Origin: Gammaproteobacteria bacterium
Lineage (GTDB): Bacteria; Pseudomonadota; Gammaproteobacteria; UBA9214
NCBI GenBank assembly: GCA_020027635.1
Contig: JAHKKL010000001.1
Span: forward strand, 1-36,528
Reading direction: 5' to 3'
DNA length: 36,528 nucleotides
This document shows, in pieces, positions 4,910-19,872 of the stretch (position 1 is the first letter of the stretch; the number at the start of each line of letters is the position of its first letter). Below the pieces are notes generated by a model. It was not told the origin of the DNA, searched no databases, and saw nothing but the letters and a program-made list of their open reading frames with translations. A program made the translations under genes and the position numbers.

Positions 4910-5164
4910 CTAATATAGGTTTGTGCGCTGCAACGGCAGCGCCCCTGGCTCGACCGGCTCACTATCCAGAGACTGGCAATACCGGTACGCCGGCCCGCCG
5001 CGATACACGCGCGAGTCGATGTTTTTGAAAAAGTCACGAGCGGCCAGCCCGGACCGAGATATTGCCGTGTACATGTACATCCAGTCCTGCGGCCGCTCCA
5101 GGGTGCCAGCGGCAATGGCGCGCTCGAACGCGTGGGTGGAATCGACAAAGGTCAGTGTGCTCAT
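4910..5164 (-). CDS. hypothetical protein (84 aa)
   Basis: GGGAG lies 6 nt upstream of ATG 5164. Globular-looking composition. First gene of the minus-strand small-gene block. Confidence 0.6.
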   Translation of the reverse strand: MSTLTFVDSTHAFERAIAAGTLERPQDWMYMYTAISRSGLAARDFFKNIDSRVYRGGPAYRYCQSLDSEPVEPGALPLQRTNLY

Positions 5165-5185
5165 GGTGTGCTCCCATCGAAATGT

Positions 5186-5213
5186 ACTGTAGTCGATGCA
5201 GACACCGTGCCAA
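5186..5213 (-). promoter_or_regulatory. sigma70-like promoter candidate for the minus-strand small-gene block
   Basis: The minus strand reads TTGGCA-N16-TACAGT (-35 at 5208-5213, -10 at 5186-5191), about 20 nt upstream of ATG 5164. Same architecture as the 4293-4320 candidate. Confidence 0.35.
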
Positions 5214-5265
5214 CGCCAGGGCTATCAGAAACACAACACGATTCAGTAAGTGAGTACTAACAATC

Positions 5266-5293
5266 CTGACAAATCTCGGCACATCGCTGACAA
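5266..5293. repeat. direct repeat CTGACAA x2, 21 bp apart
   Basis: CTGACAA at 5266-5272 and 5287-5293, in an AT-richer part of the intergenic region. A nearby palindrome GTGAC-N7-GTCAC lies at 5308-5324. Confidence 0.6.
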
Positions 5294-5569
5294 TCAACGG
5301 CAGGAAAGTGACAGAGAGCGTCACATCACACAAGGAATGGAATAAGTGAGGTAAGGTATATGAAAAAACGGTATAGAGTATCGGACAAGCTAGTTTGCAA
5401 CTATACATAACCCCCTGAAACATAACGAACGAACCGACAGAAGGTACTTGACGAATTCTGCGATGGAGTGCGATAGAGGGGGTAGGGGGAGTGAATAGAT
5501 GTGTCCCTGCTGTACCCAGGTCCAGTACCCCATCCAGCCATGCTCCCGAGTCACACCCTGTCCGTACTG

Positions 5570-5598
5570 GACCGAGAGTGACCGAGCGATGGACCGAG
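5570..5598. repeat. iteron-like GACCGAG x3
   Basis: GACCGAG starts at 5570, 5580 and 5592, a spacing of 10 and 12 bp (about one helical turn). Confidence 0.7.
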
Positions 5599-5644
5599 TG
5601 GGGTTGGGAGTGGGCTGGGGAGTGGGCTGGGGAGTGTACGGGGA
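5597..5644 (+). repeat. tandem 12-nt G-rich repeat (AGTGGGSTGGGG), about 4 units
   Basis: Units at 5597-5608 (AGTGGGGTTGGG), 5609-5620 and 5621-5632 (both AGTGGGCTGGGG, identical), and 5633 onward (degenerate). Eight G-runs of 3 or more lie between 5600 and 5649. Confidence 0.85.
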
Positions 5645-5776
5645 TGGGGTTGTCAGCCTCCTCCCCCATCCTGCACTGCAGCAATCCAGTCCAATCCCAT
5701 GGTCCCCTGGTCTTGATCAGGTCTGATCCTGAGTCAGGTACGGTTCCCACTCCAGAGTCAGAGACGAGCCTAAGTC

Positions 5777-5981: not shown

Positions 5982-7751
5982 ATGTTTGATCTCCCTCAGT
6001 TCCTGGATTTCACCAAGTCGTTGTTGATCGACTCCAAGGAGGTCGGAAGGATCTATCTCGGGACCAAGCTCTATGATGGGCAGAAATACCTGCTGAACCA
6101 GATTGATAAAGGGATCAAGGAGGGGATCCATACCTACGTGGTGTTGAAGGGGAGGCAGGAAGGGATCAGCACCATCATGTGGGCGCTGGATCTGTACTGG
6201 GGGTTTGCCAATCCTGGGACGCAAGCGACGCTGGTGGTGGACAAGGACGAGAACCGGGATCTGATGCGGGGCACGATTACGACTTGGCTGAAGCACCTGC
6301 CGCCGCAGTGGTCGATACCGGTGGTCAAGCACAATCGCACCGAGGTCGCGTTCCGTAATCGCTCGCGGATGAGTTATCAGGTCGCCGGCGTCAGGAAGGG
6401 CGGCAATCTCTCCCGCGGTCAGGCCATCAACTATGGGCACTTCACCGAGACCGGTTCGTGGGTGGATCCGGAGGGGTTGGCCTCGCTGCAGGCATCCTTG
6501 GCCGAGACCAATCCACGGCGGCTGTATGTCTACGAGTCCACAGCCAAGGGCTACAATATGTTCAAGGATCTGTGGGACACGGCCAAGGCCTCGCATGGGC
6601 AGAAGGCGCTGTTCATTGCCTGGTGGCTGAAGAACACCTACCGCATTGCCCCCGACAAGCAGCCGCGGTTGTGGAAGGCCTACGGCAAGGCGCAGCCGAA
6701 CATGCAGGAGCGGGCCTGGATCAGGGAAGTGAAGGCGCTCTACAAGTATGACATCGACGGTCAGCAGATGGCCTGGTATCGCTGGAAGCTGGCGGAGGAG
6801 ATCAGGGACGAGATCATGATGAACCAGGAATATCCCTGCACCGAGCAGCAGGCGTTCGTTGCCACTGGCACCAATTATTTCGATCTGAAGGCCCTGAACG
6901 ACATGCTGAAGGCTTCGAGGCTGTTGACGCCAGAGCCATGGCAATTTCATTTCGGGCAGAAGTTCGCTGATATCCAGATGCGGGAAGGAAATCTGAAGAA
7001 CTGCGAGCTGAAGATCTGGCAGTGGCCGGTGGAGGGGGGCTGGTACACGATTGGCGTCGATCCGGCCTATGGCTATTCCCCCGACAACGATCACCACTGC
7101 GTACAGGTCATGCGCTGCTATGCCGATGGACTGGAGCAGGTGGCGGAATTCTGCTCTGGCTCGCTCTCTACCCACCAGCTCGCCTGGGTGGCGGTCTATC
7201 TGGCTGGCGCCTACTCGGGGCGAGCCGGGCGCTGCATGATGAATCTGGAGGTAACTGGGCCCGGACAGGCGGTGCTGAACGAGATCCTAGCGATGCGCCG
7301 GTACAGCGAGCTTGCCGGTGGGCTGCCGAAGGCCTGGCAGGATGTGGCCGGCTACATTCGCAGTTACCTCAGCCGGCGGCTGGACAATCCGCGCCCCGGT
7401 GGCGGGTTCATTCACTCGAAATCCACGCACGACTACAAGGAACGGATGATGGGCTCGCTCGCTGACTGCGTGAGCAAGCGGATCATCGACATTCGCAGCG
7501 AGGAGGCGATCCGGGAGGCGCAGAACATCGTCCGTGACGAAGGGATCATCAAGACTCCGCAGAAGAAACGAGACGATCGGGTGATCGCCATCGCGCTGGC
7601 GACACTGGCCTGGCACGAGCAGATGCGCGTCTATTGCGCCGCCGATCAGGCCACCCGCGCCAAGGCCCATGTCGTCGAAGCGCACGAAAGCCCGATGGTC
7701 TTCGACACCCAGTTGCGCCAGTACCTGCGCAGTGTCGGGGCACTGCAGTGA
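5982..7751 (+). CDS. terL: terminase large subunit
   Basis: 589 aa. VLKGRQEGIST resembles the terminase Walker A-type K(G/S)RQxGxS/T motif, and YVYESTAKG resembles the ATPase coupling region. The size, the position at the head of the morphogenesis operon, and the C-terminal nuclease-sized domain all fit. Confidence 0.8.
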   Translation: MFDLPQFLDFTKSLLIDSKEVGRIYLGTKLYDGQKYLLNQIDKGIKEGIHTYVVLKGRQEGISTIMWALDLYWGFANPGTQATLVVDKDENRDLMRGTITTWLKHLPPQWSIPVVKHNRTEVAFRNRSRMSYQVAGVRKGGNLSRGQAINYGHFTETGSWVDPEGLASLQASLAETNPRRLYVYESTAKGYNMFKDLWDTAKASHGQKALFIAWWLKNTYRIAPDKQPRLWKAYGKAQPNMQERAWIREVKALYKYDIDGQQMAWYRWKLAEEIRDEIMMNQEYPCTEQQAFVATGTNYFDLKALNDMLKASRLLTPEPWQFHFGQKFADIQMREGNLKNCELKIWQWPVEGGWYTIGVDPAYGYSPDNDHHCVQVMRCYADGLEQVAEFCSGSLSTHQLAWVAVYLAGAYSGRAGRCMMNLEVTGPGQAVLNEILAMRRYSELAGGLPKAWQDVAGYIRSYLSRRLDNPRPGGGFIHSKSTHDYKERMMGSLADCVSKRIIDIRSEEAIREAQNIVRDEGIIKTPQKKRDDRVIAIALATLAWHEQMRVYCAADQATRAKAHVVEAHESPMVFDTQLRQYLRSVGALQ

Positions 7752-8680: not shown

Positions 8681-8949
8681 GAACTGTTCTCTGCGCGTAC
8701 GATGTCTGGACGCTGCGCCGTGGTGATCGGATCGGCGCCGGTTGTCCGGTCGAGATCTGCGATGTTGCTGATGAGCGCCTGTGCGTGGCCGATGGTGTGC
8801 GCTCACCAAGGGCCATCATCGATCTACCGATGATTGTCGATGGCGACACCCGGTACATAGCATTGGCACACCTGCCGGATGGTCTGGAGATCACGGTGGA
8901 CGGACCGCCCAGCCTGATCGAAACCGGGCACGCCGGGATAGAGATATGA
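8677..8949 (+). CDS. hypothetical protein (90 aa)
   Basis: ATGA overlaps at both ends place it in a translationally coupled chain between terL and the portal gene. Confidence 0.5.
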   Translation: MRTVLCAYDVWTLRRGDRIGAGCPVEICDVADERLCVADGVRSPRAIIDLPMIVDGDTRYIALAHLPDGLEITVDGPPSLIETGHAGIEI

Positions 8950-10616
8950 AGATCCCGAGCGATCTCATCGAACGCTATGATCTGTACACGGATGTGATGC
9001 AGGCATGCGCCAGCTCGCGCGAGCCGCGCAAGGGCAACTACAAACGCCGATACAGCTATTTCGTCTATGGCGCGCAGCCGGAGGTGCTGGCAAGCCCGTT
9101 CAACAAGATAGGCCCGGCATTGGATGCCCTGACCTCGCTCATTTTCTCCGCCGAGACCACGCGCTTCAGCATCGAACTCGGAGTGGATGCAAAACCGGTG
9201 GACAAGCTGCGCACGATGTCGGTCAGCCGCCAGCTCTCCCGGCGCTGGAACGAGATGAAGGCGGGCGAGCTGGTCCGGCAGGCGGTGTTGTGGGCGCTTG
9301 CCTATGACTCGATGTTCCTGAAACTCCTCTGGCGCGGTGGGCGATATCAGGCCTTCCTGTGCGAGCCGCACACGATAGGGTTGTTCCGGGACGATGTGAC
9401 GGACATCGATGAGCAGGAGGCGATCTCGATGACCTACGGGATCACCATCAAGGAATTGACGCGCGAACTCGCCTCGCACCCGCGGCGCGCCGAGATCCTG
9501 AAGAATGTCAGTGCCAGTCAGCGCCAGGACTCTACCGCCGAGGCCGATGGGCTCTCGAAACTGGTGGTGGCGCAGATCAGATCGGACAATCCGACCAACC
9601 TGATCGGCAATCTCGCGAGCCCCTTCGTCGGCACACGGCTGGATCTGACCCCTACCGGACAGGAACAACTGGTGCCGATGACCGAGCTTTGGATCTGGGA
9701 CGATGACAAGGCCGATTATCGGGTAGTCACGCTTGCCAATGACATGACGGTCTATGATCGCTTCTCCGGCAATCACCCGGGCGAGCCGCCCGGCATGTGG
9801 ATGAAGGGAGAGCACCAGTTCATTCAGTTCTGTCCAGAGCCGAAGTACGACTATGCATGGGGATTCAGCCAGATTGACCGATTGATGGATCTGCAGGACT
9901 GGCGCACCCGGCGCATGCGCGAGATCTCCGACGTGCTCTCGCGCAATACCTATCCGCCGAAGATCTCCTTTGGCGTCCCCGGCATACAGGACGAAAAGGC
10001 CTATGCACTGGGTCTGGCCAAGTCCTATTTCGCGGTTGCCGATCCGATGGGCAAGATCGAGGAATGGAAGACCGATCTGCCACAGGATCTGTTCATCGAG
10101 ATCAGGGAGATCGATGCGATGTTCGACGAGGCCCTGGGACTGCCGAAGATCCTCCAGGGCGAGGGCACGCCCGGCGTGCGCTCTCGTGGCCACGCCGAGA
10201 CCCTCGGGCGCTATGCCAGCGGCCGCGCGCGCTCTCGCAGCCAGTATGTGGAAAGCGCGGTCGAGCGGCTGGTCAACCTGATGTTGCAAGGCATGCGCGT
10301 ACATGATGCGACCCACCTGCCAGCCGATGACGGGACGAAGTTCATCGTCGGCCAGTTCGACAAGGTGGCAGTGGCCAAGGTCGATGCGCATTCCTCGAGT
10401 CCGGTCTTCGTCGAGGAACTCGATCGGACCGCCAATGAGCTGTTCGAGGCCGGCGCCATCGATCGGCGCACGCTGCTGGAGCTGCGCCAGCCGCCGATGC
10501 TCGACATGCTGCTGGAGCGCCTGAAGGATATCGAGGAGAAGGAGGCGAAGAACGCCCAGATGCAGATGGAATTCGAGCTGAAAACCAAACAGGCCGCGGC
10601 CCAGAGGATACGATAA
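8946..10616 (+). CDS. portal protein (candidate)
   Basis: 556 aa starting at ATG 8946 (ATGA overlap). The size and the terminase-proximal position are typical of portals. No specific motif was verified by eye. Confidence 0.55.
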   Translation: MKIPSDLIERYDLYTDVMQACASSREPRKGNYKRRYSYFVYGAQPEVLASPFNKIGPALDALTSLIFSAETTRFSIELGVDAKPVDKLRTMSVSRQLSRRWNEMKAGELVRQAVLWALAYDSMFLKLLWRGGRYQAFLCEPHTIGLFRDDVTDIDEQEAISMTYGITIKELTRELASHPRRAEILKNVSASQRQDSTAEADGLSKLVVAQIRSDNPTNLIGNLASPFVGTRLDLTPTGQEQLVPMTELWIWDDDKADYRVVTLANDMTVYDRFSGNHPGEPPGMWMKGEHQFIQFCPEPKYDYAWGFSQIDRLMDLQDWRTRRMREISDVLSRNTYPPKISFGVPGIQDEKAYALGLAKSYFAVADPMGKIEEWKTDLPQDLFIEIREIDAMFDEALGLPKILQGEGTPGVRSRGHAETLGRYASGRARSRSQYVESAVERLVNLMLQGMRVHDATHLPADDGTKFIVGQFDKVAVAKVDAHSSSPVFVEELDRTANELFEAGAIDRRTLLELRQPPMLDMLLERLKDIEEKEAKNAQMQMEFELKTKQAAAQRIR

Positions 10617-11578
10617 TGCCACTTTCCAACCCGACCACGCCCATCACCAGCCCAGTCCCGAAAGGTGCCGGCCCAACTGCCGCCAATATCTGGTCCGGAC
10701 AGGCCGGCGCACCGCCATCCGGCCTGGGCGCGGCGGTCGCCGCACAATCACCTGCCGCGCAGCAGACTGGCGTCTCCTACAAACAATCGCCATTTGCCGA
10801 GCAATGGACCAAATATGATCCAACTCAGATCTGGGATCAATGGAGTACCGGCGACTGGAAGGTTCCGGGGCAGGGGATCGCAACCCTGATGAACAAAGGC
10901 AGCATGGACGTGCCGAGCGCGAACCAGGACACCTGGAAATGGTACCAAGGTGTCCTGCAAGCCGCTGCCAACCCGCAATCCGGCCGTGGATTCAGTGAAG
11001 GTGGACTTCAAGGAACGCCTGGCGCCGGTGTTAACCCCGGACACCAGAGCGAGATCACGGCACTGAAGTCGGTAGCCGATGCGCTGAAGGTGCCGGTGGA
11101 TGAATTGCCGATCGGCGGCGCCTATCTGGCCCGTGATCTCTATCTGCGCCAGTCCGAGGCCACCCGCCGCAAGCACGACAGCGGACCGATGGGGATGCTC
11201 GGGAACCTTCTCAGCATCGCGATGTTCGCGCTCAACCCCGGCCTGGGGGCCTTCGGCAAGCTCCTGGGCGGTCAGATCGTCGGCTCCGTACTGCCGAAGC
11301 TCGCGGGCGCGGTATTTGGCGGCAATGAAGGCTCAGGAACGCCCAAACCCGGCGCCGGCAAGGCCCCGGCCAATACCGCACAGACTGCGATGGCCGCGCT
11401 GACCCCGACCACGCGCACCAGCGCCCCCGGATTGCTCAAGGCCGGCGCGCAAAGCACCGGAAAATCGATCTCATCGACGCGCGCCAGTGGCACCGCACGC
11501 GCCGTCAACCTCGGCAATTCGTCCAGTGCCAGAACCGGGGCGGGAAAGAAGAAATACGAGGATATTTTCGGAAAGTAA
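10616..11578 (+). CDS. hypothetical virion-associated protein, low-complexity Pro/Ala/Gly-rich ends
   Basis: 320 aa. The ATG overlaps the portal stop (TAATG). Basic C-terminal tail (GAGKKKYEDIFGK). Confidence 0.55.
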   Translation: MPLSNPTTPITSPVPKGAGPTAANIWSGQAGAPPSGLGAAVAAQSPAAQQTGVSYKQSPFAEQWTKYDPTQIWDQWSTGDWKVPGQGIATLMNKGSMDVPSANQDTWKWYQGVLQAAANPQSGRGFSEGGLQGTPGAGVNPGHQSEITALKSVADALKVPVDELPIGGAYLARDLYLRQSEATRRKHDSGPMGMLGNLLSIAMFALNPGLGAFGKLLGGQIVGSVLPKLAGAVFGGNEGSGTPKPGAGKAPANTAQTAMAALTPTTRTSAPGLLKAGAQSTGKSISSTRASGTARAVNLGNSSSARTGAGKKKYEDIFGK

Positions 11579-11631
11579 GTGTCCATTCACGCCGTGATAG
11601 ACTGAAAACACGACCATCATCAGGTGATCTC

Positions 11632-12498
11632 ATGCGAAAACTCACTGCCCTGCTGCTTTTCCTGCTGAGCACCCCCGCCTGGGCGGCGTGGAACTGCCAG
11701 TCCTTCAACTCGCAGGTCTATTGCACCGGCACCGCCGCGCAATTCTCGACCAACACCCCCGGCGGTATCGCCACGCGCGCGACCGGCAACAGCTCCGATA
11801 CCCAGCACGCCTATACCTGGTCCGGGACGGCATGGATCGATCTGGGCGCGGCTGCTGGCGGCACGGTCTCCATCGACCAGACGGGGCCGGCGAATGATGT
11901 CAATCTCGTCACGCCTGCCGGCGATTCGGCGATGGATGATGTGAACGATGCTGTGAAGGTCAACGTAGTGACTGGCGGGGCCGGCGCATCTCCGGCGAGC
12001 CCCGCATATGTGACGCTGGGTGGCGGCATCGGCGTCACCGATACCTACATCGCGCGATTTGACGCCACGGGCGACATGCCGGCCAGCATCACCAGTTCGG
12101 CAAACGTCAGCGCCAGCAGGATCAAGTTCACCGGCTTTGCTGGCGCTGACCGAAGGGTTCAGGTGGCATGGCATTGCGCGACCACCGCCGGCCCCGACAC
12201 GCAGGCGACGCAGGCTTTCTTCGGGCCGGTAGCACAGGGCGCGATGGTCACCATCAATGCCGCCGATGATTCGACTGCCAACACCCGGCTGACCTATGTA
12301 GACATCACTGGCGGCGGCACGCCATCGACACCAGTATCGGATGTGTTCATGGTGTCGAACACGTCGCCCTTCATCGAGGTCGTGCTGAACACCGCCATCA
12401 CCCGCGTCGATGTGATTGGTGTACCTAACACCTTGAGCACCACGAACCTAGATACCATCATCCCGTGCTTCGTTGAGCTGAAGGGGCTGGCACCATGA
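11632..12498 (+). CDS. secreted protein of unknown function (Sec signal peptide)
   Basis: MRKLTALLLFLLSTPAWA|AW has the n-, h- and c-regions of a signal peptide with an AxA site. The mature part is Thr/Ala/Gly/Val-rich and looks beta-rich. Confidence 0.6.
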   Translation: MRKLTALLLFLLSTPAWAAWNCQSFNSQVYCTGTAAQFSTNTPGGIATRATGNSSDTQHAYTWSGTAWIDLGAAAGGTVSIDQTGPANDVNLVTPAGDSAMDDVNDAVKVNVVTGGAGASPASPAYVTLGGGIGVTDTYIARFDATGDMPASITSSANVSASRIKFTGFAGADRRVQVAWHCATTAGPDTQATQAFFGPVAQGAMVTINAADDSTANTRLTYVDITGGGTPSTPVSDVFMVSNTSPFIEVVLNTAITRVDVIGVPNTLSTTNLDTIIPCFVELKGLAP

Positions 12499-13313
12499 TG
12501 CGACGACTGCTCGCGCTAATTCTTCTCGCGCCGCTCGTTGCATTCGCGGCGAGTTACAGCGCTGTCCGACCGCCGCAGCTGTCCGCTGGCACGTCTCCGA
12601 GTCCGCCGGAGGTTGCGCTCACGGCTTATGTGGCCGACTCGACCGGCACATATCTGAGCAGAGCACAGCCAGTCGGCGTCGTAGATGGCTCGCAATTCAC
12701 GCTGTCGATGTGGTTCAACCAGACCACAGGAGGCAACTGCCTTCTGTTTGCCAGCACTGCGGGCAGCAACTCCGCGTATATTGATCTTTACAATTTTGTG
12801 TCAGGAGTAGCGACGCTTGAAACGAGGAACAATAGCGGAGGAGCGCAGAATCTTTCCTCCACATGGGCTACAGCGTCAGCAGGCGCGGTTCACCACATTG
12901 TGGTAAGCATTGATCTGACCAACACCGCGAAGCGTCATGTGTACGTGGATGGTGTCGCTCAGTCAGTGACATGGACTACCTATGACACTGCAAATCCTAA
13001 CATTGATTGGACCGTGAGTAGTTGGTTTGTGATGCACGGACCTTCAAATGGATTTGGAGACTGCGGCGGGCAGGTAGGGCAAGTGTGGTTCAACACGTCG
13101 TACATCGACCTGAGCGTACCAGCCAACCTTGCGAAGTTTTACAATGCAGGAAAGCCTGTTTATCTCGGAGCAGACGGCTCTCTGCCGACCGGGTCGCAGC
13201 CGCTCATATATCTGCCTGAATTCGGTGACCGCGCCGGTATCAATCGAGGCACTGGGGGCGACTACACGGCAACTGGAACGCTGCCAGCAGCCGGTCGGAT
13301 TCTCGGGCGATAA
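12495..13313 (+). CDS. secreted LamG/concanavalin-A-like lectin-fold protein
   Basis: Signal peptide MMRRLLALILLAPLVAFA|A. FTLSMWF...VHHIVVSIDLTNTAKRHVYVDGV...GQVGQVWFNTSYIDLS...LAKFY follows the Laminin_G_3 pattern. Confidence 0.6.
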   Translation: MMRRLLALILLAPLVAFAASYSAVRPPQLSAGTSPSPPEVALTAYVADSTGTYLSRAQPVGVVDGSQFTLSMWFNQTTGGNCLLFASTAGSNSAYIDLYNFVSGVATLETRNNSGGAQNLSSTWATASAGAVHHIVVSIDLTNTAKRHVYVDGVAQSVTWTTYDTANPNIDWTVSSWFVMHGPSNGFGDCGGQVGQVWFNTSYIDLSVPANLAKFYNAGKPVYLGADGSLPTGSQPLIYLPEFGDRAGINRGTGGDYTATGTLPAAGRILGR

Positions 13314-13315
13314 CG

Positions 13316-14980
13316 TTGCCGCGCTTTAATATCTCAGGCTCGCCGAGTTTTCTGCCTGCGGGCATGTCGCTGGTGGCGATTAAGGCGATTCAAAAGGGCA
13401 TTACCTCGACGTACACCGCGTCACCACCTGACGCCACGCAGAATGCGTACATGGCGGCGAATGGACTGACGGCATTCCGCTGCATCAACAACGAAAACGG
13501 ATGCACCTGCAACGCTGACGGCACCGGGTTTTCTAAGGCCGGGACGTTCTTGGATGACGACATCGCTCTCAACAAGGCCATCCCCGGCGTCACTCGCGTG
13601 TCGTCGGTTATCGGAGGCTTCCTGCCAACCGCGCTGAGAGTGACCGAGGCAGGTGGTGCGTGGACATCCGGGTTCTATCGTTGCGTGAGTGCCGCCGCAT
13701 GGAAAACCTACGTCAAGGGGATGCTCGACTTCATCTATCTGACGCAAGGACTAAACGACATCTGGTTCATTTTCGGCAACGAGTTTCACGCTATTGCCGA
13801 CCCGTGGATTGACGCCACCGCTGCGACGGACAGGGATGCAGGTGCTACCGGCACACCTGATGGCGGCGCGCAGCGGTACACAAACTATCTGACGTGGTAC
13901 GGCCACACCAGTGACGCTTTCAAGGAATGGAAAATCACCAACCCATCGAAGCTCATCAAGCTTGGCGGGCCGGCGATGGACTACCACCTCGAGACGTTGC
14001 CCCAGTTCTATACCGATTGTCAGTCGGCGACACACATTCTTGACTTCGTGGATGTTCACTTCAACGTGCCGCAGTCCTTCATCGCCGGAAAGAGCCTTGC
14101 TGACTTGATGGGCACGGTCATCAAAGACCTCCGAGCCGTGGCCCCGTCGATGCCGGTATGGATCACCGAGAACACATTCACGATTGGCGGCTCCAGCGGT
14201 ACTTTCGGAAACAACCCGATTACCACCGTTAGCGGCAGCAACATCATCACGCTCAACAAGACCGCGCACGGGCTGGTGGCGAACCAGAGGCTCGTTCTTT
14301 ACAACGCCATCGACACGAACGGTATCACTGCAGCCAACATCAATGGGCACCGCACAGTCCTAGATGTCACCGACGCGAACAACTATCGGGTAGTCGTGGG
14401 GGCGAACGCTACCTCCAACGGTACCGGTGGCGGCACGACCCCAATGAGCTACGCGCTCGACGACCAGTTCCTTGAATGGCACCCGACCTACATGGGCGCA
14501 GCGTATCTTGAGCGCGCATTGTTCGTGGCCCGCCAAGGGTACACAGAGGGGTATCACCTGCTGGGCTACGAGAACCGCGTCGCGTCGCAGGCGAACCCTG
14601 TGCGCGCATGGTTCTTCGTTGATTCATACAACAACTGGGAGCCGTTCCATACGTGGCTCGCGCATATGACGCTGCAGCAGGTCACCGGAACCTACGTGCA
14701 GGCCGGGGTGCTGCCAAAGACTGCCGGGGTCAACTCCGTCCCGATGGGAATAGTGGCCAACAACGGCGGCCTGTATAACGCCGCGATCTGGAACTTCTCG
14801 CACCAGCACAACCCGGACCCGCACAACAAGCCGTGGAGCGACGCGACGAAGGTGCAGGCCGTTCTTGCCGACGGATCGAGGAAGTCGATCAGCCGGTACA
14901 AGCTTAACGGCTCGTCGTCATGGATCATTGGTGAGCCGACATTGAACTACGGCGACTATTGTTACTGCGAGCTTGTATGA
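13316..14980 (+). CDS. clan GH-A-like glycoside hydrolase (polysaccharide depolymerase candidate)
   Basis: 554 aa. FIFGNEFH looks like the strand-4 Asn-Glu acid/base motif, and PVWITENTF looks like the strand-7 Glu nucleophile of (beta/alpha)8 clan A hydrolases. There is an inserted Gly/Thr/Asn-rich segment after the ITE motif. TTG start at 13316, or ATG at 13364. Confidence 0.5.
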   Translation: MPRFNISGSPSFLPAGMSLVAIKAIQKGITSTYTASPPDATQNAYMAANGLTAFRCINNENGCTCNADGTGFSKAGTFLDDDIALNKAIPGVTRVSSVIGGFLPTALRVTEAGGAWTSGFYRCVSAAAWKTYVKGMLDFIYLTQGLNDIWFIFGNEFHAIADPWIDATAATDRDAGATGTPDGGAQRYTNYLTWYGHTSDAFKEWKITNPSKLIKLGGPAMDYHLETLPQFYTDCQSATHILDFVDVHFNVPQSFIAGKSLADLMGTVIKDLRAVAPSMPVWITENTFTIGGSSGTFGNNPITTVSGSNIITLNKTAHGLVANQRLVLYNAIDTNGITAANINGHRTVLDVTDANNYRVVVGANATSNGTGGGTTPMSYALDDQFLEWHPTYMGAAYLERALFVARQGYTEGYHLLGYENRVASQANPVRAWFFVDSYNNWEPFHTWLAHMTLQQVTGTYVQAGVLPKTAGVNSVPMGIVANNGGLYNAAIWNFSHQHNPDPHNKPWSDATKVQAVLADGSRKSISRYKLNGSSSWIIGEPTLNYGDYCYCELV

Positions 14981-15082
14981 ACATCGCCAGAACCCTTGCC
15001 ACCCCCCTGCCGACAGGTGCTATTGCGATGACAGACGAATTCGACTTCGGCACTCTGGCCGACACTGAACGAGGCATGACAC

Positions 15083-15301
15083 ATGACGCTGACTGACGTT
15101 TGGGAAGTTCTGCAATACGCGGAGCGTACCGGCGCCGATACCGACGTTCCGGAAGGATCGCGCGTCGTGGCGCTGTCGGAGACGCTGGTTAATGAAATGC
15201 TGCAGGCGTTCATTGGTAGCGACGTCGATATGCCGGCGCGCCGCGTCCACGAACTGATGCGCCAGATGGCAGAACGCAGCCGCGCCGCTCCAACGAACTG
15301 A
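15083..15301 (+). CDS. hypothetical protein (72 aa)
   Basis: Acidic, helical-looking ORF with GAGG upstream. No motif. Confidence 0.45.
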   Translation: MTLTDVWEVLQYAERTGADTDVPEGSRVVALSETLVNEMLQAFIGSDVDMPARRVHELMRQMAERSRAAPTN

Positions 15302-15342
15302 CATTTCCGCACTTCATCCACCAAGGCGCTTTGGCGCATATT

Positions 15343-15363
15343 TGGGTAGTGTCTCAGTTTGAA
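15343..15363. repeat. left arm of perfect 21-bp inverted repeat (TGGGTAGTGTCTCAGTTTGAA)
   Basis: It is the exact reverse complement of 15973-15993. The match does not extend by even 1 nt on either side. Confidence 0.95.
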
Positions 15364-15680
15364 TGATAAATTCTGATCTCGAAAAATATGCCCCATCTGT
15401 TGACTTGGAGATTGATCCGGGCATTCGTCGCTTTGTTCTAATTCTACGCTCTGGCGGCGTCGATACCTTTGAGTCGTGCGAAGGCGGCGAAGGTCATCCG
15501 TTCAAAGAGCCGACCGTAAGATTCATGGGGAATACCGCCGAAGGGTATAGGGCCTTTTCAGTGGCGATAAACTACGGGCTGCCGGTCTGTAAGTTGCGGC
15601 GCTACTATCAGGTTATTGATTGTCAACTAGAAGGCCCGTGGTGGGAGATGACTTTTTCCATCACGGACAAACATCAGTAG
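15363..15680 (+). CDS. hypothetical protein (105 aa) inside the IR-bounded unit
   Basis: Globular-looking composition (…FESCEGGEGHPFKEPTVRF…GPWWEMTF…). The A of its ATG is the last base of the left IR arm. No Shine-Dalgarno sequence upstream. Confidence 0.5.
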   Translation: MINSDLEKYAPSVDLEIDPGIRRFVLILRSGGVDTFESCEGGEGHPFKEPTVRFMGNTAEGYRAFSVAINYGLPVCKLRRYYQVIDCQLEGPWWEMTFSITDKHQ

Positions 15681-15702
15681 TGTGAGTTGGCGCAAAAGAG
15701 CC

Positions 15703-15731
15703 CCCGTCTCGGGATTCCGGCCCGAGACGGG
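15703..15731. terminator. strong GC-rich hairpin, terminator-like (better on the minus strand)
   Basis: CCCGTCTCGGG-attccgg-CCCGAGACGGG forms an 11-bp stem. On the minus strand it is followed by GGCTCTTTTG. On the plus strand the T-run (GTTTTGG) begins only about 10 nt downstream. Confidence 0.45.
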
Positions 15732-15761
15732 TAAGTCAATGTTTTGGATTGCAACGCAGAA

Positions 15762-15887
15762 AGGCAGGTGATGCCTATGAGATCAGGGTCGCCCTGATAT
15801 TTGGGCGAGGGGCGGGGAAACCCGCCCCATCTAATCACATGGGCCAATTGTGTTTTTGGCCCTCGCAGTATAGCATACCTGTGAGGG
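15762..15887 (+). ncRNA. candidate structured RNA (consecutive hairpins incl. a GAAA tetraloop); class unknown
   Basis: Stems at 15762-15776 (5 bp), 15782-15798 (7 bp), 15809-15828 (8 bp GGGGCGGG/CCCGCCCC closed by GAAA), 15841-15862 (7 bp) and 15860-15887 (9 bp). The last stem has a G-U pair that is only valid on the plus strand. The last two stems share 15860-15862, so they are mutually exclusive. Confidence 0.3.
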
Positions 15888-15972
15888 AAAATACTTATGG
15901 TGTGTCGCGCGGTCTCTTTGGCTTCTTCATGCTTGTAGTATGGCATAGCCTGACCGCTCAAGCATCTGGCTT

Positions 15973-15993
15973 TTCAAACTGAGACACTACCCA
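15973..15993. repeat. right arm of perfect 21-bp inverted repeat (TTCAAACTGAGACACTACCCA)
   Basis: Exact reverse complement of 15343-15363. Confidence 0.95.
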
Positions 15994-16065
15994 GATGGCG
16001 ATTGCCTTGCATCCGCAGAATTCCCGTTCTATGCTGATCCCCATGCGAGTAAGTACGCACTAACC

Positions 16066-16464
16066 ATGTCCGTCCCGCCCGAGATCATGCAGATGATGTC
16101 GCAGGGTGGACAACCGCCGCCGGCCGCCCCCGCGCCGGGTGCCGGTCCACTGGGCTCGCCGATGTCCGGCCCGCAGCCGGCCGAGGGGGATCGGGCGCTG
16201 GCGCTGACCCAGTTGCAGACGGCCAAGAGCATGCTGGAGATCGCGCTGCCGAAGCTCGGGAGCGAGTCCCCGGAGGGGCAGGCGATCCTGGATTTCCTGA
16301 AGAAGATCGGGAAATCGGTCGGCCCACAGCGAGCAGAGTCCGAATTGGTGCCGGCCGAGATCGTGAATCTGTTGCAGAGCCTCCCGCAGGCCGGTGGACA
16401 GTCCCCGGAAGCGGCCAGCCTGCAGAACCAGTTGCCGCAAGGTCTACCAGGAGGTATGCAATGA
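16066..16464 (+). CDS. hypothetical Pro/Gln/Gly-rich protein (132 aa), head-morphogenesis region
   Basis: The ORF is ATGA-coupled to the next gene. It has low-complexity ends and a helical centre. Weak RBS. Confidence 0.5.
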   Translation: MSVPPEIMQMMSQGGQPPPAAPAPGAGPLGSPMSGPQPAEGDRALALTQLQTAKSMLEIALPKLGSESPEGQAILDFLKKIGKSVGPQRAESELVPAEIVNLLQSLPQAGGQSPEAASLQNQLPQGLPGGMQ

Positions 16465-16649
16465 AGAATTTCAACGACAAGCCGTCCAGCGCCGGGTTCC
16501 GGATGCCGACCGATACCGCCCAGAAGAACGGGCAGGTGGTGAATCCGCCGCGGATGGAGCAGATGGGCGGATTTTCGAGCCTGAACAAGGGCCCGAATCG
16601 CAACGCGATGAAGATCGTTCCCCCGAATCGCGGCCCGATCAAGGGCTGA
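16461..16649 (+). CDS. hypothetical basic protein (62 aa)
   Basis: ATGA overlap with the upstream ORF. Asn/Pro/Gly/Lys-rich. Confidence 0.4.
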   Translation: MKNFNDKPSSAGFRMPTDTAQKNGQVVNPPRMEQMGGFSSLNKGPNRNAMKIVPPNRGPIKG

Positions 16650-16652
16650 TCG

Positions 16653-17180
16653 ATGACCACGCCACTTTCTGCGCAGGGGCGGCGGCTCGGGGAGCTGAAG
16701 GATGTGGCGGCTTGGCAGTCCGGGCTCGCCGGGGTCGAGAAATGCCTGGCGGTGGTGACCAAGATCCCGCATGGCACCGCCTCGACCGACTATGCGTTCA
16801 AGATCGGCTCATTGCAGACCTACAACGGCACGACCACCCGCCGTGATCTGTATGCCCCGAACACGCTCATCCCCGGTTTCACCGGCACCGCCTACTACTA
16901 CATCACGCGCGCGATCGTGAACAATCCGAGCGCCGATCTCTCACTCGCGACCTCCAGTCTATATACGGCTGCCAGCGCCGGCGGCACGGCCATCATTTCG
17001 GATGCGGCCCTGACCACGCTGAATGCCGCGACCGCGACCCTGAACGCGACCCGGACGATAGCGGCCGGCGGTACCGGCAACCTGTTTACCAGCGCTGCCA
17101 ACGGCACGCTCTACTACCGTGTCGGGACGAATGTCACCGGCAATGCCGACTTCTACCTGTTCGGATTCCTGCTTCCATGA
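16653..17180 (+). CDS. hypothetical virion structural protein (175 aa)
   Basis: Thr/Ala/Gly-rich, beta-looking protein upstream of the scaffold and capsid genes. Confidence 0.5.
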   Translation: MTTPLSAQGRRLGELKDVAAWQSGLAGVEKCLAVVTKIPHGTASTDYAFKIGSLQTYNGTTTRRDLYAPNTLIPGFTGTAYYYITRAIVNNPSADLSLATSSLYTAASAGGTAIISDAALTTLNAATATLNATRTIAAGGTGNLFTSAANGTLYYRVGTNVTGNADFYLFGFLLP

Positions 17181-17190
17181 GGGCTGATCG

Positions 17191-17730
17191 ATGAGCGAAA
17201 CACTTGAAGGTCTGAGCGAGGAGCAGATCCGAGCACTGGCCGAGACCGCGATGAGCCTGGGCAACAACCCCGGCACCCGGCGGGATTTCCAGCGACTGGT
17301 GAAGAAAGCCCATCCGGACGTGAACATCCCGGAGATCGAGACCGACGAGCGCGTAGCCGCGCTGGAGGCGAGTTTCAACACCCGGCTCTCGGAGTTCGAG
17401 AAACAGCAGAAGGTGGCAGACGCCACCCGCCGGGTGACCGAGAAGCGCCAAGAGCTGATCTCCAAGGGTCTGGCCAAGGATCAGGCCGAGATCACCGCCA
17501 TCGAGAAGATCATGGTCGAGCGCGGGGTGGGTGATTACGAGGTAGCGGCGACCTACTACCGCGCCCAGAATCAGCCGGCCGCGCCCACGCCACATGCCAT
17601 CCAGTTGTTCGAGCCCCCGAAGGACGAGCTGAAGATGCTGCGCGAGTCCGGTCCGGGTGAACTGAAGCGTCATGCCATCAATCTCGCGCATCAAGTCGCG
17701 GCAGAATTCAGAGCCGGCAAAACCGGTTAA
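17191..17730 (+). CDS. scaffolding protein (candidate)
   Basis: 179 aa, highly charged and helical (EKQQKVADATRRVTEKRQELISKGLAKDQAEITAIEKIM). It lies immediately upstream of the major capsid gene. GAGGG RBS. Confidence 0.55.
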   Translation: MSETLEGLSEEQIRALAETAMSLGNNPGTRRDFQRLVKKAHPDVNIPEIETDERVAALEASFNTRLSEFEKQQKVADATRRVTEKRQELISKGLAKDQAEITAIEKIMVERGVGDYEVAATYYRAQNQPAAPTPHAIQLFEPPKDELKMLRESGPGELKRHAINLAHQVAAEFRAGKTG

Positions 17731-17744
17731 CCAGGAGCGCCAGC

Positions 17745-18755
17745 ATGTCCAATCTCGCAACCGGCTATCTTCCCACAGGCGCAATCGGCGCCGAACTCTC
17801 GGCCATCACGCGCCGGGCGTTCATCCCGTCACTGATCGTGCAGGTCTACAATGCCAGCCCGAACATGGCAGCGCTGATCGCGAATGCGAACACCGCCACC
17901 GGCGGCATCAATTCGGTCACCGCGCCCGTGCAGGGCAATGCGATGACCACCCCGGCATGGTCTGACTACTCCGGCACATTCAACCAGCCGGCTGTGCAGA
18001 CCGGTATTCAGGACGCCGAGTTCAGCCTGAAGCTCTTGATCACCCCGATCCCCTATCTGGGCATGGAGGGGCTGGTGCAGGCTGATCATGCGGTCATCAA
18101 TCGCCTGTACGCGGTGATGAATGACGCTGGTAACTCGACCACGGACACGCTCTCGACTGCGCTGTTCACGAACGTCAGCAACACCCAGCAGATGACCGGG
18201 TTCCCGGCTGCCATCGATGACGGCACCAATCTGGTGACCTACGGCGGGATCAGTCGCACGACCTACAGCTGGTGGCAGTCACTGGTCTACGCCAACAGCC
18301 CGGCGGTGAACCCGACGCGGGCCTCGGTGATGCAGTGGATCACCGGCACGGTCAAGAAATGCGGCGAGCTGCCGACCTACGGCACGATGGGTCCGGGGAC
18401 CTGGCAGTTGCTGGCCAACGATTACGTTGGGCAGGAATCCTATGTGATCCAGCCCGGTCGCAGCTTCACCGATGACAATTCCGGTCCGCGCTCGGCCTTC
18501 CGGGCGCTGGAGGTTGCCGGCGTGCCGATCTACCTCGATCCCTACCAGACCGAGGGCGAGCTGCTGCTGATCAACAGCAACTACATCAACCTCTATATCC
18601 ACGAGATGGCGAGTTTCGCCTTTACCGGATTCGAGTCCACGCTGCCGAATTTCCAGCTCGGCTATGTCGGCGCGGTCGTGACCGTGCTCGAGCTGGTCAA
18701 CGTCAAGCCGAAGTCCTGCACGCGAGTGTCGGGCCTCAATTACCTGTCGATCTAA
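17745..18755 (+). CDS. major capsid protein (candidate)
   Basis: 336 aa with AGGAG 9 nt upstream. It follows the scaffold-like gene. Size and composition are typical of HK97-fold coat proteins. Family not verified. Confidence 0.65.
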   Translation: MSNLATGYLPTGAIGAELSAITRRAFIPSLIVQVYNASPNMAALIANANTATGGINSVTAPVQGNAMTTPAWSDYSGTFNQPAVQTGIQDAEFSLKLLITPIPYLGMEGLVQADHAVINRLYAVMNDAGNSTTDTLSTALFTNVSNTQQMTGFPAAIDDGTNLVTYGGISRTTYSWWQSLVYANSPAVNPTRASVMQWITGTVKKCGELPTYGTMGPGTWQLLANDYVGQESYVIQPGRSFTDDNSGPRSAFRALEVAGVPIYLDPYQTEGELLLINSNYINLYIHEMASFAFTGFESTLPNFQLGYVGAVVTVLELVNVKPKSCTRVSGLNYLSI

Positions 18756-18768
18756 AGGAGCGACCGTC

Positions 18769-19872
18769 ATGGGCGTCAATCAAATCGGTGCAGGCATCAA
18801 GTCCACGGCGCGGCCGGCCATCACGGTCGATCTGCAGAGCGGACAGGGCTACACGGTCCCGAGCGGCCAGTACATGGTCAGCCCCGGCAAATACACATTT
18901 ATCCAGTACTTCGATCCGGTCCTCTACACCTGGCGCAAGCTGGGCGCCGGCGCGCTGCCACAGTCCGTGATCCTGTCCTCGGACGGGACCAACTATCGGC
19001 TATACAACCCGACCGGCACGGTCGTGGCGGCCATCGTGACCAACGGTGGCACCGCGGACACGACCCTGAACGGGGTCTGGCTGGCCAAAAATGTGACCTC
19101 GACCACCCCATCCGCGAAGGTCACCAGCACGCGCACGGTGTTCAACGTGATTATCGGCGGCGCAGTCTCGACCACGGTCACAGTGGCGACGGCCGGCAGT
19201 GGCTACACGGTGGCGCCGATCGTGACCTTCTCGGCCCCGCCGCAGGGCGGCATGCAGGCGACCGGCTATGCCACGATCTCCTCGGGTGCGGTGACGAGTG
19301 TCACGGTCACCAACCAGGGCGGCGGTTATTCCAGCGCCCCGACCGTGACGCTGACGAACGCCAATGGAGACACGACTGGTAGCGGCGCGACGGCAACCGC
19401 GGCGCTGGACACGACGGTGTCGGGCAAGGTCGTGGGGCTGACCTGCACCGAATCCGCGACCGGCCTGACCTCGGTTCCGACGATTACCTTCAGCAATTGC
19501 CCGGCGAGCGCTGCCGCCACGGCCATCATGTGCCTGACCGCGACCACGGTGCCGAACCAGGCATCGACGCAGATGGGCAATGGCAGTGTCGGCCTGATGA
19601 TGAGCGCGGTGACTGCCGGCTCCTCGATCACGACCAACCCGCTGTACGAGACCGGTGTGTTTACCCCGCGCCTTGGCTATACAGCATGGTCGGCAGTGGC
19701 CTCGGGCGCAACGACGATCGTCGATGGCGGCCTGCACCAGATCGTCTCGGCCACCAATACCTCCAATGTGGTCTATGCCATTCTGCCGACAGGGACCACG
19801 CCGGGCGCAGCCACCCCGGCGGCCTGCACCTATTCGTCCACGAACGATCGCAGCATCCTGCTGCCGCTATGA
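18769..19872 (+). CDS. virion surface/decoration-type structural protein with GxGY(T/S)xAPxV(T/S) repeat modules
   Basis: 367 aa with AAGGAG RBS, directly after the capsid gene. It contains AGSGYTVAPIVTFS and QGGGYSSAPTVTLT modules and long Thr/Ser/Ala/Gly tracts. Confidence 0.55.
   Translation: MGVNQIGAGIKSTARPAITVDLQSGQGYTVPSGQYMVSPGKYTFIQYFDPVLYTWRKLGAGALPQSVILSSDGTNYRLYNPTGTVVAAIVTNGGTADTTLNGVWLAKNVTSTTPSAKVTSTRTVFNVIIGGAVSTTVTVATAGSGYTVAPIVTFSAPPQGGMQATGYATISSGAVTSVTVTNQGGGYSSAPTVTLTNANGDTTGSGATATAALDTTVSGKVVGLTCTESATGLTSVPTITFSNCPASAAATAIMCLTATTVPNQASTQMGNGSVGLMMSAVTAGSSITTNPLYETGVFTPRLGYTAWSAVASGATTIVDGGLHQIVSATNTSNVVYAILPTGTTPGAATPAACTYSSTNDRSILLPL

Follow-up and report, generated by a model that had tools for sequence, protein, structure and literature searches.

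The stretch of DNA analysed here, referred to as the window, comprises 36,528 nucleotides of a Gammaproteobacteria bacterium (lineage UBA9214; assembly GCA_020027635.1, contig JAHKKL010000001.1). The contig is a whole 36.5-kb piece (C177) of a 2.4-Mb metagenome-assembled genome (MAG) with 433 contigs, and judged from its genes it reads as a tailed-phage genome fragment. The phage is novel and about 36 kb in size. Our subject is a trio of tightly packed open reading frames (ORF1, ORF2 and ORF3) within 11632-14980. An earlier note on this DNA had described three consecutive genes between the portal-proximal genes and the scaffold and capsid genes; both the ORFs and this position were confirmed: the portal (8781-10616) lies on one side of the trio, scaffold and capsid genes (17191-18755) lie on the other, and the trio is not part of the tail module. 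The features of the trio and of the block that contains it are the following:

11632-12498, plus strand: ORF1, 288 amino acids (aa), from the ORF list
11632..11685, plus strand: Sec-type signal peptide of ORF1, MRKLTALLLFLLSTPAWA followed by AW (positive n-region, Leu-rich h-region, A-x-A site)
12004..12495, plus strand: conserved C-terminal domain of ORF1 (residues 125-288)
12495-13313, plus strand: ORF2, 272 aa, from the ORF list
12495..12548, plus strand: signal peptide of ORF2, MMRRLLALILLAPLVAFA followed by AS, Sec-type in appearance with a twin arginine present
13316-14980, plus strand: ORF3, 554 aa from TTG 13316 or 538 aa from ATG 13364
13778..13783, plus strand: Asn155-Glu156 of the FGNE motif (153-156) of ORF3, predicted acid/base catalyst at the end of strand 4, aligned to the WNEP of glycoside hydrolase family GH39 and invariant in the relative P0050
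14168..14170, plus strand: Glu285 of the ITE motif (283-285) of ORF3, predicted nucleophile at the end of strand 7, aligned to the TE of GH39 and the W-x-TE of GH128, invariant in P0050
14183..14455, plus strand: beta-barrel-type module of about 85-90 aa (residues ~290-380), inserted in the catalytic domain of ORF3 after the nucleophile strand
10617..16065, plus strand: inserted block with a 320-aa gene, the trio, a 72-aa ORF and a unit resembling the insertion sequence IS1 with terminal inverted repeats
10616..11578, plus strand: Gly/Ala/Pro-rich protein of 320 aa, first gene of the block (ORF call)

The end of ORF1 and the start of ORF2 share the letters ATGA, and a Shine-Dalgarno sequence, GAAGGGG, lies upstream. 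The stop of ORF2 is separated from the start of ORF3 by 2 nt (TTG 13316) or by 50 nt (ATG 13364), of which the start at 13364 is favoured by the gene caller of the MAG and by the alignment to the sole full-length relative. With this overlap and these short gaps, the three genes are translationally coupled inside the late operon. Direct sequence searches of the three proteins against Pfam, PHROGs, NCBIfam and the PDB gave nothing usable.

ORF1 consists of a signal peptide, a low-complexity linker of about 105 aa with a Cys22/Cys31 pair, and a C-terminal beta-sandwich 'knob' domain. Its conservation is confined to residues ~125-288, which show 35-63% identity to signal-less phage proteins of about 180-230 aa. 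In the AlphaFold2 (AF2) model, residues 132-288 form a beta-sandwich with eight strands and two helices at a pLDDT of 75-90, and the N-terminal 130 residues are unstructured. A Foldseek search with this model resulted in weak and generic jelly-roll or fibre-knob matches with TM scores of about 0.2-0.3. The fold of ORF1, given as unknown in the earlier note, is thus not simply unknown, since the C-terminal 160 aa comprise a conserved phage beta-sandwich domain. Unrelated phages carry this domain in their structural and tail modules. An ORF1-like gene is found immediately 3' of a T7-type portal in locus L006, 3' of the capsid gene in L024, within a podophage tail module in L008 and, in L014, at the distal end of a siphophage tail module past the tape measure and tail-fibre-type (phrog_11439) genes. 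Since an identity of 60% stands against no detectable similarity of the other window proteins to those phages, the domain moves horizontally.

ORF2 comprises a signal peptide, a LamG/ConA-like domain and the C-terminal motif DLSVPANLAKF...GKPVYLGADGSLPTG...NRGTGG. Among 35 relatives, 18 were aligned, and ORF2 is 25-36% identical to these across most of its length. ORF2 itself has no direct match to PF13385 (Laminin_G_3) or another Pfam model; in the alignment, PF13385 is matched by 12 of 19 rows with a best E of 5.6e-15, and via this transitive homology ORF2 is putatively assigned as a LamG protein, as the earlier note had read it. Alongside the LamG domain, the family shares the C-terminal consensus DLSVxANLAKF..GKPVYLGADGSxPTG..NRGTGG. 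Genes of this type occur in several settings. In L004 the LamG gene adjoins an SU10-type adaptor and a 599-aa fibre-type gene, and in the SU10-like locus L002 (10001-12122) a LamG protein of the family with an LIGC lipobox stands at the end of the tail genes, directly before a holin-like/lysozyme lysis cassette. In the cultured Roseobacter phage CRP-603, the LamG unit makes up the N-terminal part of gp52, a tail-cluster protein of 902 aa. A further relative, P0024, is a secreted chromosomal protein of a bacterium and has a long n-region with TFRRALS. A comparison of ORF2 with the NCBIfam head-spike-fibre domain of gene transfer agents (GTA) gave a weak match below the cut-off (E 0.0034), which can be taken as a lead only. 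Several metagenomic relatives (P0007-P0015) hold the unit of LamG domain and C-terminal motif twice in tandem, which suggests that the motif serves for linkage or oligomerisation in a fibre-like architecture made of repeats.

Signal peptides were called by rules, namely a basic n-region, a hydrophobic h-region of 10-15 residues and small residues at -3/-1. The leader of ORF1 is composed of MRK, LTALLLFLLSTP and AWA before AW, with a maximum hydropathy of 2.59, and that of ORF2 of MMRR, LLALILLAPLV and AFA before AS. Both agree with the rules for Sec export and cleavage by signal peptidase I, in line with the Sec signals that the earlier note had assigned to the first two genes. Among the 25 window proteins scanned, signal-like N-termini were found in ORF1, ORF2 and a lipoprotein trypsin only, and in no protein of the tail module. 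The ORF1 signal is missing in 12 of 12 aligned relatives. Most ORF2 relatives are signal-less as well; of the 19 aligned rows, only the bacterial chromosomal protein P0024 and P0026, a phage protein with a lipobox, share hydrophobic N-termini. This pattern points to ORF1 and ORF2 having gained Sec signals that their relatives and the phage's own tail proteins do without. In a literature search, neither a paper on exported phage fibre or lectin modules nor a published explanation for such export was found.

The third protein differs in this respect, as ORF3 has no signal peptide and its upstream frame leaves no space for one. A fusion of ORF2 and ORF3 via a -1 frameshift was considered and rejected, since the frames overlap at 13229-13313 but contain no slippery heptamer. 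With neither a signal of its own nor a frameshift route to that of ORF2, the exported glycosidase proposed in the earlier note is not supported.

For ORF3, a HMMER scan of 1.84 billion representative proteins yielded a single full-length relative, P0050 (468 aa, E 5e-53), and about 290 further proteins that match at residues ~290-380 only. The assignment to clan GH-A relies on hhalign with controls. An alignment of ORF3 plus P0050 with four PF01229 (GH39) proteins resulted in a probability of 90.1% and an E of 1.6e-6 over 166 columns covering strands 3-7. For comparison, the reversed query gave an E of 0.098 and two unrelated profiles gave 0.33 and 0.53, and the same-clan positive control of GH128 against GH39 gave 6.9e-6. 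P0050 alone aligns to GH39 across 306 columns, reaching into the C-terminal region. In addition, PF11790, a GH128-type catalytic core, matches residues 1-300 of ORF3 with 23.4 bits (cut-off 21); this match appears on the N-terminal fragment only, and a PF11790 search of the whole MAG missed ORF3. Against PF01229, ORF3 showed no match even at E up to 10, and P0050 reached 16.9 bits, below the cut-off of 26. Since the curated threshold of PF01229 is missed, ORF3 is not accepted as a member of GH39; on the alignments it is accepted as a predicted GH39-like protein of clan GH-A.

The motifs from which the earlier note had read a clan GH-A catalytic site, FGNE and ITEN, are both present and align to the catalytic positions of GH39. 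ITEN covers residues 283-286 and corresponds to (V/I)TE in P0050, and H248 aligns with the strand-6 His of GH39. Altogether, R55, N155-E156, H248, E285 and W432 of ORF3 are kept in P0050. The motif R-x-I-N-x-x-N-x-C-T-C-x-A-D-G-T-G-F (residues 55-72), which contains two cysteines, is also invariant between the two proteins and has no counterpart in GH39. PDB sequence searches with ORF3 gave no matches.

The module inserted in the catalytic domain is missing from P0050. It is often repeated in large phage proteins, some of which carry a T4 gp8 domain or weak matches to the endosialidase beta-barrel PF12195, and it is found in L004, within the 599-aa gene that adjoins the LamG gene, and in a protein of Ralstonia phage RSP15. 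The insert of ORF3 itself shows no significant match to PF12195 (E 0.99). The insert would likely serve as an extra glycan-binding module. The gene upstream of P0050 ends like a LamG protein. Elsewhere in the MAG, no paralogues of ORF2 or ORF3 were found.

The position of the trio between portal and scaffold was compared with other phages. The closest genomes found were MW202753.1 (35.6 kb) and MW202825.1 (34.2 kb), both complete and circular; they came solely from a tblastn search of INPHARED, and no close relatives by major capsid protein (MCP) or portal were found in IMG/VR or in 100 related host genomes. Identities to MW202753 and MW202825 amount to 59% for the MCP, 43% for TerL and 39-40% for the portal. 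In a tblastn synteny map, MCP, TerL, portal, scaffold and the flanking small genes are collinear between the window and both relatives. The order in the relatives is TerL, small genes, portal, about 0.45 kb of tiny variable genes, the orthologue of 16066-16464, the orthologue of 16461-16649, scaffold and MCP. The window keeps this order, but 5.45 kb (10617-16065) replace the spot of about 0.45 kb, and no part of these 5.45 kb has a match in MW202753.1 or MW202825.1 by tblastn. Since about 0.45 kb in the relatives stand against 5.45 kb here, the block represents an insertion at a variable spot, and the inserted cargo suspected in the earlier note is borne out by its absence from both relatives. 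The spot between portal and scaffold is evidently permissive for insertions, and the block is dispensable in the closest relatives.

Two further parts of the block deserve mention. The 320-aa protein contains a glycine-zipper-like hydrophobic stretch at about residues 195-245; no Pfam, PHROG or NCBIfam match and no counterpart in MW202753 or MW202825 was found for it. Within the block, just 3' of the trio, a 657-bp unit (15340-15996) is flanked by 24-nt terminal inverted repeats that are 96% complementary. This unit comprises a 105-aa ORF and a hairpin-rich non-coding tail and lies in the stretch of lowest GC in the region.

A scan of the plus strand around the block for sigma-70 consensus promoters and intrinsic terminators found none. 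Since no plus-strand promoter- or terminator-like site brackets the block, it would most simply be part of the late transcript.

The arrangement of the trio is not restricted to this phage. An ORF1-like gene followed by a second gene was found in L006, L008, L014, L022 and L024, and a second protein follows in every locus for which downstream sequence is available. In L006 (7322-10076) and L022 (1240-3832) the knob gene and a second protein of 267-296 aa are followed by a PhoD-like phosphoesterase, and the pairwise identities of the three proteins between these loci are 61%, 41% and 36%. Since L006 and L022 carry a PhoD-like phosphoesterase, the three-slot layout of knob, second protein and hydrolase recurs with another enzyme. 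The comparison of both loci with the window suggests a plug-in enzyme slot in a common scaffold. The second proteins of the ORF1-like loci were also considered as LamG relatives of ORF2; hhalign did not support this (probability of about 0.2%), and the resemblance by eye is confined to an N-terminal motif.

Altogether, we put at an even chance that the trio is a mobile phage cassette of knob, lectin and hydrolase, which is expressed late, with two binders re-tooled for export and an enzyme released at lysis. The parts of the cassette seem to derive from the phage receptor-recognition toolbox, comprising a knob domain, a tail-type LamG domain and a tail-type beta-barrel inside the enzyme. The cassette would have landed in the variable spot between portal and scaffold and would be transcribed with the late operon, so that ORF1 (knob) and ORF2 (LamG lectin) would be made as precursors late in infection. 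Sec would translocate both, and signal peptidase I would cut after AWA and AFA, respectively. In the oxidising periplasm, ORF1 with four cysteines and ORF2 with two could then fold and bind host envelope polysaccharide, either in the periplasm or after lysis. ORF3 would stay in the cytoplasm until lysis and would act as a GH39-like glycosidase of the retaining type, in which Glu156 would serve as the acid/base and Glu285 as the nucleophile. Once freed, it could serve as a soluble depolymerase cleaving the same or a related glycan (capsule, exopolysaccharide (EPS) or O-antigen). The net effect would be the masking and destruction of receptors around the lysing cell, with fewer progeny trapped on debris or matrix and possibly the exclusion of superinfecting phage as consequences. 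We infer the glycan binding, the enzyme activity, the substrate and the biological role of the trio, and regard the trio as likely non-virion cargo. Broader and rather doubtful is the combined proposal that receptor-binding blocks, converted by Sec signals to soluble exported glycan binders, act jointly with an orphan GH39-like depolymerase, freed by lysis, as a system by which a lytic phage masks and destroys receptors, and that the knob-lectin-enzyme cassette is at the same time a general plug-in unit with swappable enzymes in unrelated tailed phages.

Several points weigh against a released cassette. Export and cleavage of ORF1 and ORF2 are predicted from sequence rules alone. Since ORF3 is signal-less, the proteins of the trio could come together only once the cell has lysed. 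For ORF3, the AF2 model, calculated from a two-sequence alignment, has a pLDDT of 32, so that the predicted TIM-barrel fold lacks structural support; the alternating helix/strand pattern seen in this low-confidence model agrees with such a fold but is not counted as evidence. Furthermore, the relatives of ORF1 and ORF2 sit in structural and tail modules, a LamG unit is fused into CRP-603 gp52, and the insert of ORF3 is a tail-protein module, for which reason an attachment to the virion fits these observations equally.

The main alternative is a virion-attached auxiliary set for host recognition, with ORF1 as short fibre or knob, ORF2 as lectin subunit and ORF3 as depolymerase, mounted as appendages of head, neck or tail. 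The leaders would then serve a periplasmic maturation followed by attachment after lysis, or would play no role in export. The positions of the ORF1-like genes in the structural modules of L006, L024, L008 and L014 speak for this explanation, as do the ORF2-type LamG genes that adjoin SU10-like adaptor and fibre genes or, in one case, are fused in gp52, the insert that ORF3 has in common with baseplate and fibre proteins, and the weak, below-cut-off match of ORF2 to the GTA head-spike-fibre domain. Against it stands that virion assembly takes place in the cytoplasm, yet two of the three proteins have canonical cleavable export signals, and the phage's own tail genes are without them. No domain that could act as an anchor is in common with other proteins of the window: BLASTP of the trio against every other window protein showed no similarity, and no shared anchor or N-terminal particle-binding domain was found. 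Since the block is also dispensable in the closest relatives and the trio lies outside the tail module, we consider virion attachment possible but on the whole somewhat unlikely.

The earlier note had thought of a moron. A classical lysogenic-conversion moron would be an autonomously transcribed prophage cargo remodelling the surface of the lysogen or its biofilm matrix. The insertion absent from the relatives and the export signals on two products are in line with this explanation, and signal-peptide genes of Porphyromonas phages have been proposed to modify the host (Matrishin et al. 2023, PMC10367356). A further point in its favour is the composition of ORF2, which shows a G+C content at third codon positions (GC3) of 0.586, whereas ORF1 (0.768) and ORF3 (0.759) are close to portal, scaffold and MCP (0.77-0.84). 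The hand counts of G+C that the earlier note had given, 26/60 and 44/60, are exact; its view of the trio as one low-G+C island did not hold, as the gene-wise dip in GC3 concerns ORF2 only and the other two genes are backbone-like (about 0.76-0.84). Low GC3 was also determined for further genes of the window, namely the 105-aa gene of the inverted-repeat unit, an 895-aa tail gene and the minus-strand gene 5034-5750. Against autonomous expression from a lysogen stand the lack of a sigma-70-like promoter or intrinsic terminator in the plus-strand scan around the block, the translational coupling within the late operon and the relatives, which are complete circular genomes of about 35 kb. No tyrosine integrase was found on the contig, compared to seven elsewhere in the MAG (serine integrases were not searched for); neither contig end is conserved in same-genus genomes, and no sign of a prophage junction was found. 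Altogether, a moron in the classical sense is improbable.

Finally, a Tat 'hitch-hiker' mechanism, in which the twin-arginine leader of ORF2 (MMRR...) carries a pre-folded ORF2-ORF3 complex and the trio acts in the periplasm or envelope, would agree with the RR pair in the n-region, with the long TFRRALS-containing n-region of the chromosomal relative P0024 and with the renewed adjacency of LamG and glycosidase genes in L011, but it is very improbable, since the leader counts no more than 18 aa, is highly hydrophobic with a hydropathy of 2.97 and lacks both the F-L-K part of the Tat motif and a basic c-region, so that it would fit Sec better, and since nothing points to an ORF2-ORF3 complex.

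For a cassette of exported binders and a released enzyme, comparisons can be drawn to several known systems. GH39 includes the XynB beta-xylosidases and PslG, the Psl exopolysaccharide hydrolase of Pseudomonas. With this family ORF3 shares the N-E acid/base, the strand-6 His and the T-E nucleophile, and its C-terminal part is beta-rich (in the low-confidence model) as in two-domain GH39 proteins. In contrast, ORF3 scores below the gathering threshold of PF01229, contains the phage beta-barrel of about 85 aa after strand 7 and the conserved NxNxCTCxADGTGF, and is encoded by a phage. The K1F and K1E endosialidases resemble ORF3 in that a carbohydrate-active catalytic domain is interrupted by a small beta-barrel, which is PF12195 in the endosialidases. 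Phage depolymerases are similar with respect to the neighbouring lectin-fold and fibre-like genes; they differ from ORF3 in having beta-propeller or beta-helix folds instead of the predicted TIM-barrel GH-A fold. Compared to tail-borne depolymerases, ORF3 shows no detected N-terminal particle-binding domain, and its gene lies between portal and scaffold.

T5 Llp is an exported receptor-masking lipoprotein encoded beside the gene of the receptor-binding protein. The likeness to the trio consists in a late or accessory product with a Sec-type signal and a proposed block of receptors on the infected cell and on debris, and a lipoprotein version of the ORF2 family stands beside the lysis cassette in an SU10-like phage. 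In contrast to Llp, to which no sequence or fold relation exists, ORF1 and ORF2 have their origin in modules of the receptor-binding type, and they are presumed to target a glycan and not a porin. The morons of lambdoid late operons, in the definition of Hendrix and Juhala and with bor and lom as examples, likewise represent an extra block among conserved morphogenesis genes that is absent from close relatives and has envelope-directed products. The trio differs from them in the lack of a detected promoter or terminator and of evidence for lysogeny, and a deviant composition is confined to one gene of the three.

If the reading as an exported cassette is true, the same phage modules with and without export signals would offer a natural comparison for the question why phages export fibre- or lectin-type proteins, and the combination of knob, second protein and hydrolase would add a new unit to the modular evolution of phages. 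With a single relative in 1.84 billion representative proteins, ORF3 would stand for a GH-A lineage that is almost an orphan, and the inserted domain may be the sign of a new polysaccharide depolymerase that could be useful against biofilm or capsule. Since amino-sugar synthesis genes are also present at 29.7-36.5 kb, the phage appears to invest heavily in the surface-glycan biology of its host.

The remaining features of the contig comprise:

Left contig end: GH108 endolysin and lipoprotein trypsin
5982-7751: TerL
8781-10616: portal, weakly SU10-like (Pfam and PHROG scans)
17191-17730: scaffold-like gene
17745-18755: major capsid protein (phrog_9953, E 8e-24)
Up to about 29 kb: Ig-domain and tail genes
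29.7-36.5 kb: amino-sugar synthesis genes
Right contig end, minus strand: sugar-nucleotide genes

No terminal repeat was found on the contig, and an Rfam scan of the window gave no matches.

Two genes close to the capsid gene also differ from the related phages. The 175-aa gene at 16653-17180 has no counterpart in MW202753 or MW202825. A direct repeat of 26 nt (AGGGCTGATCGATGA..., 81% identity), with copies at 16642-16667 and 17180-17205, flanks this gene and spans the contexts of ribosome-binding site and start of both the 175-aa gene and the scaffold gene. The gene with its repeats resembles either a further small insertion or a duplication at a junction. Directly 3' of the capsid gene, a 367-aa protein with Ig-like domains is encoded at 18769-19872. 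It matches the related phages via shared Ig repeats only, and three small genes occupy that position there; this Ig-like protein may represent a lineage-specific head decoration.

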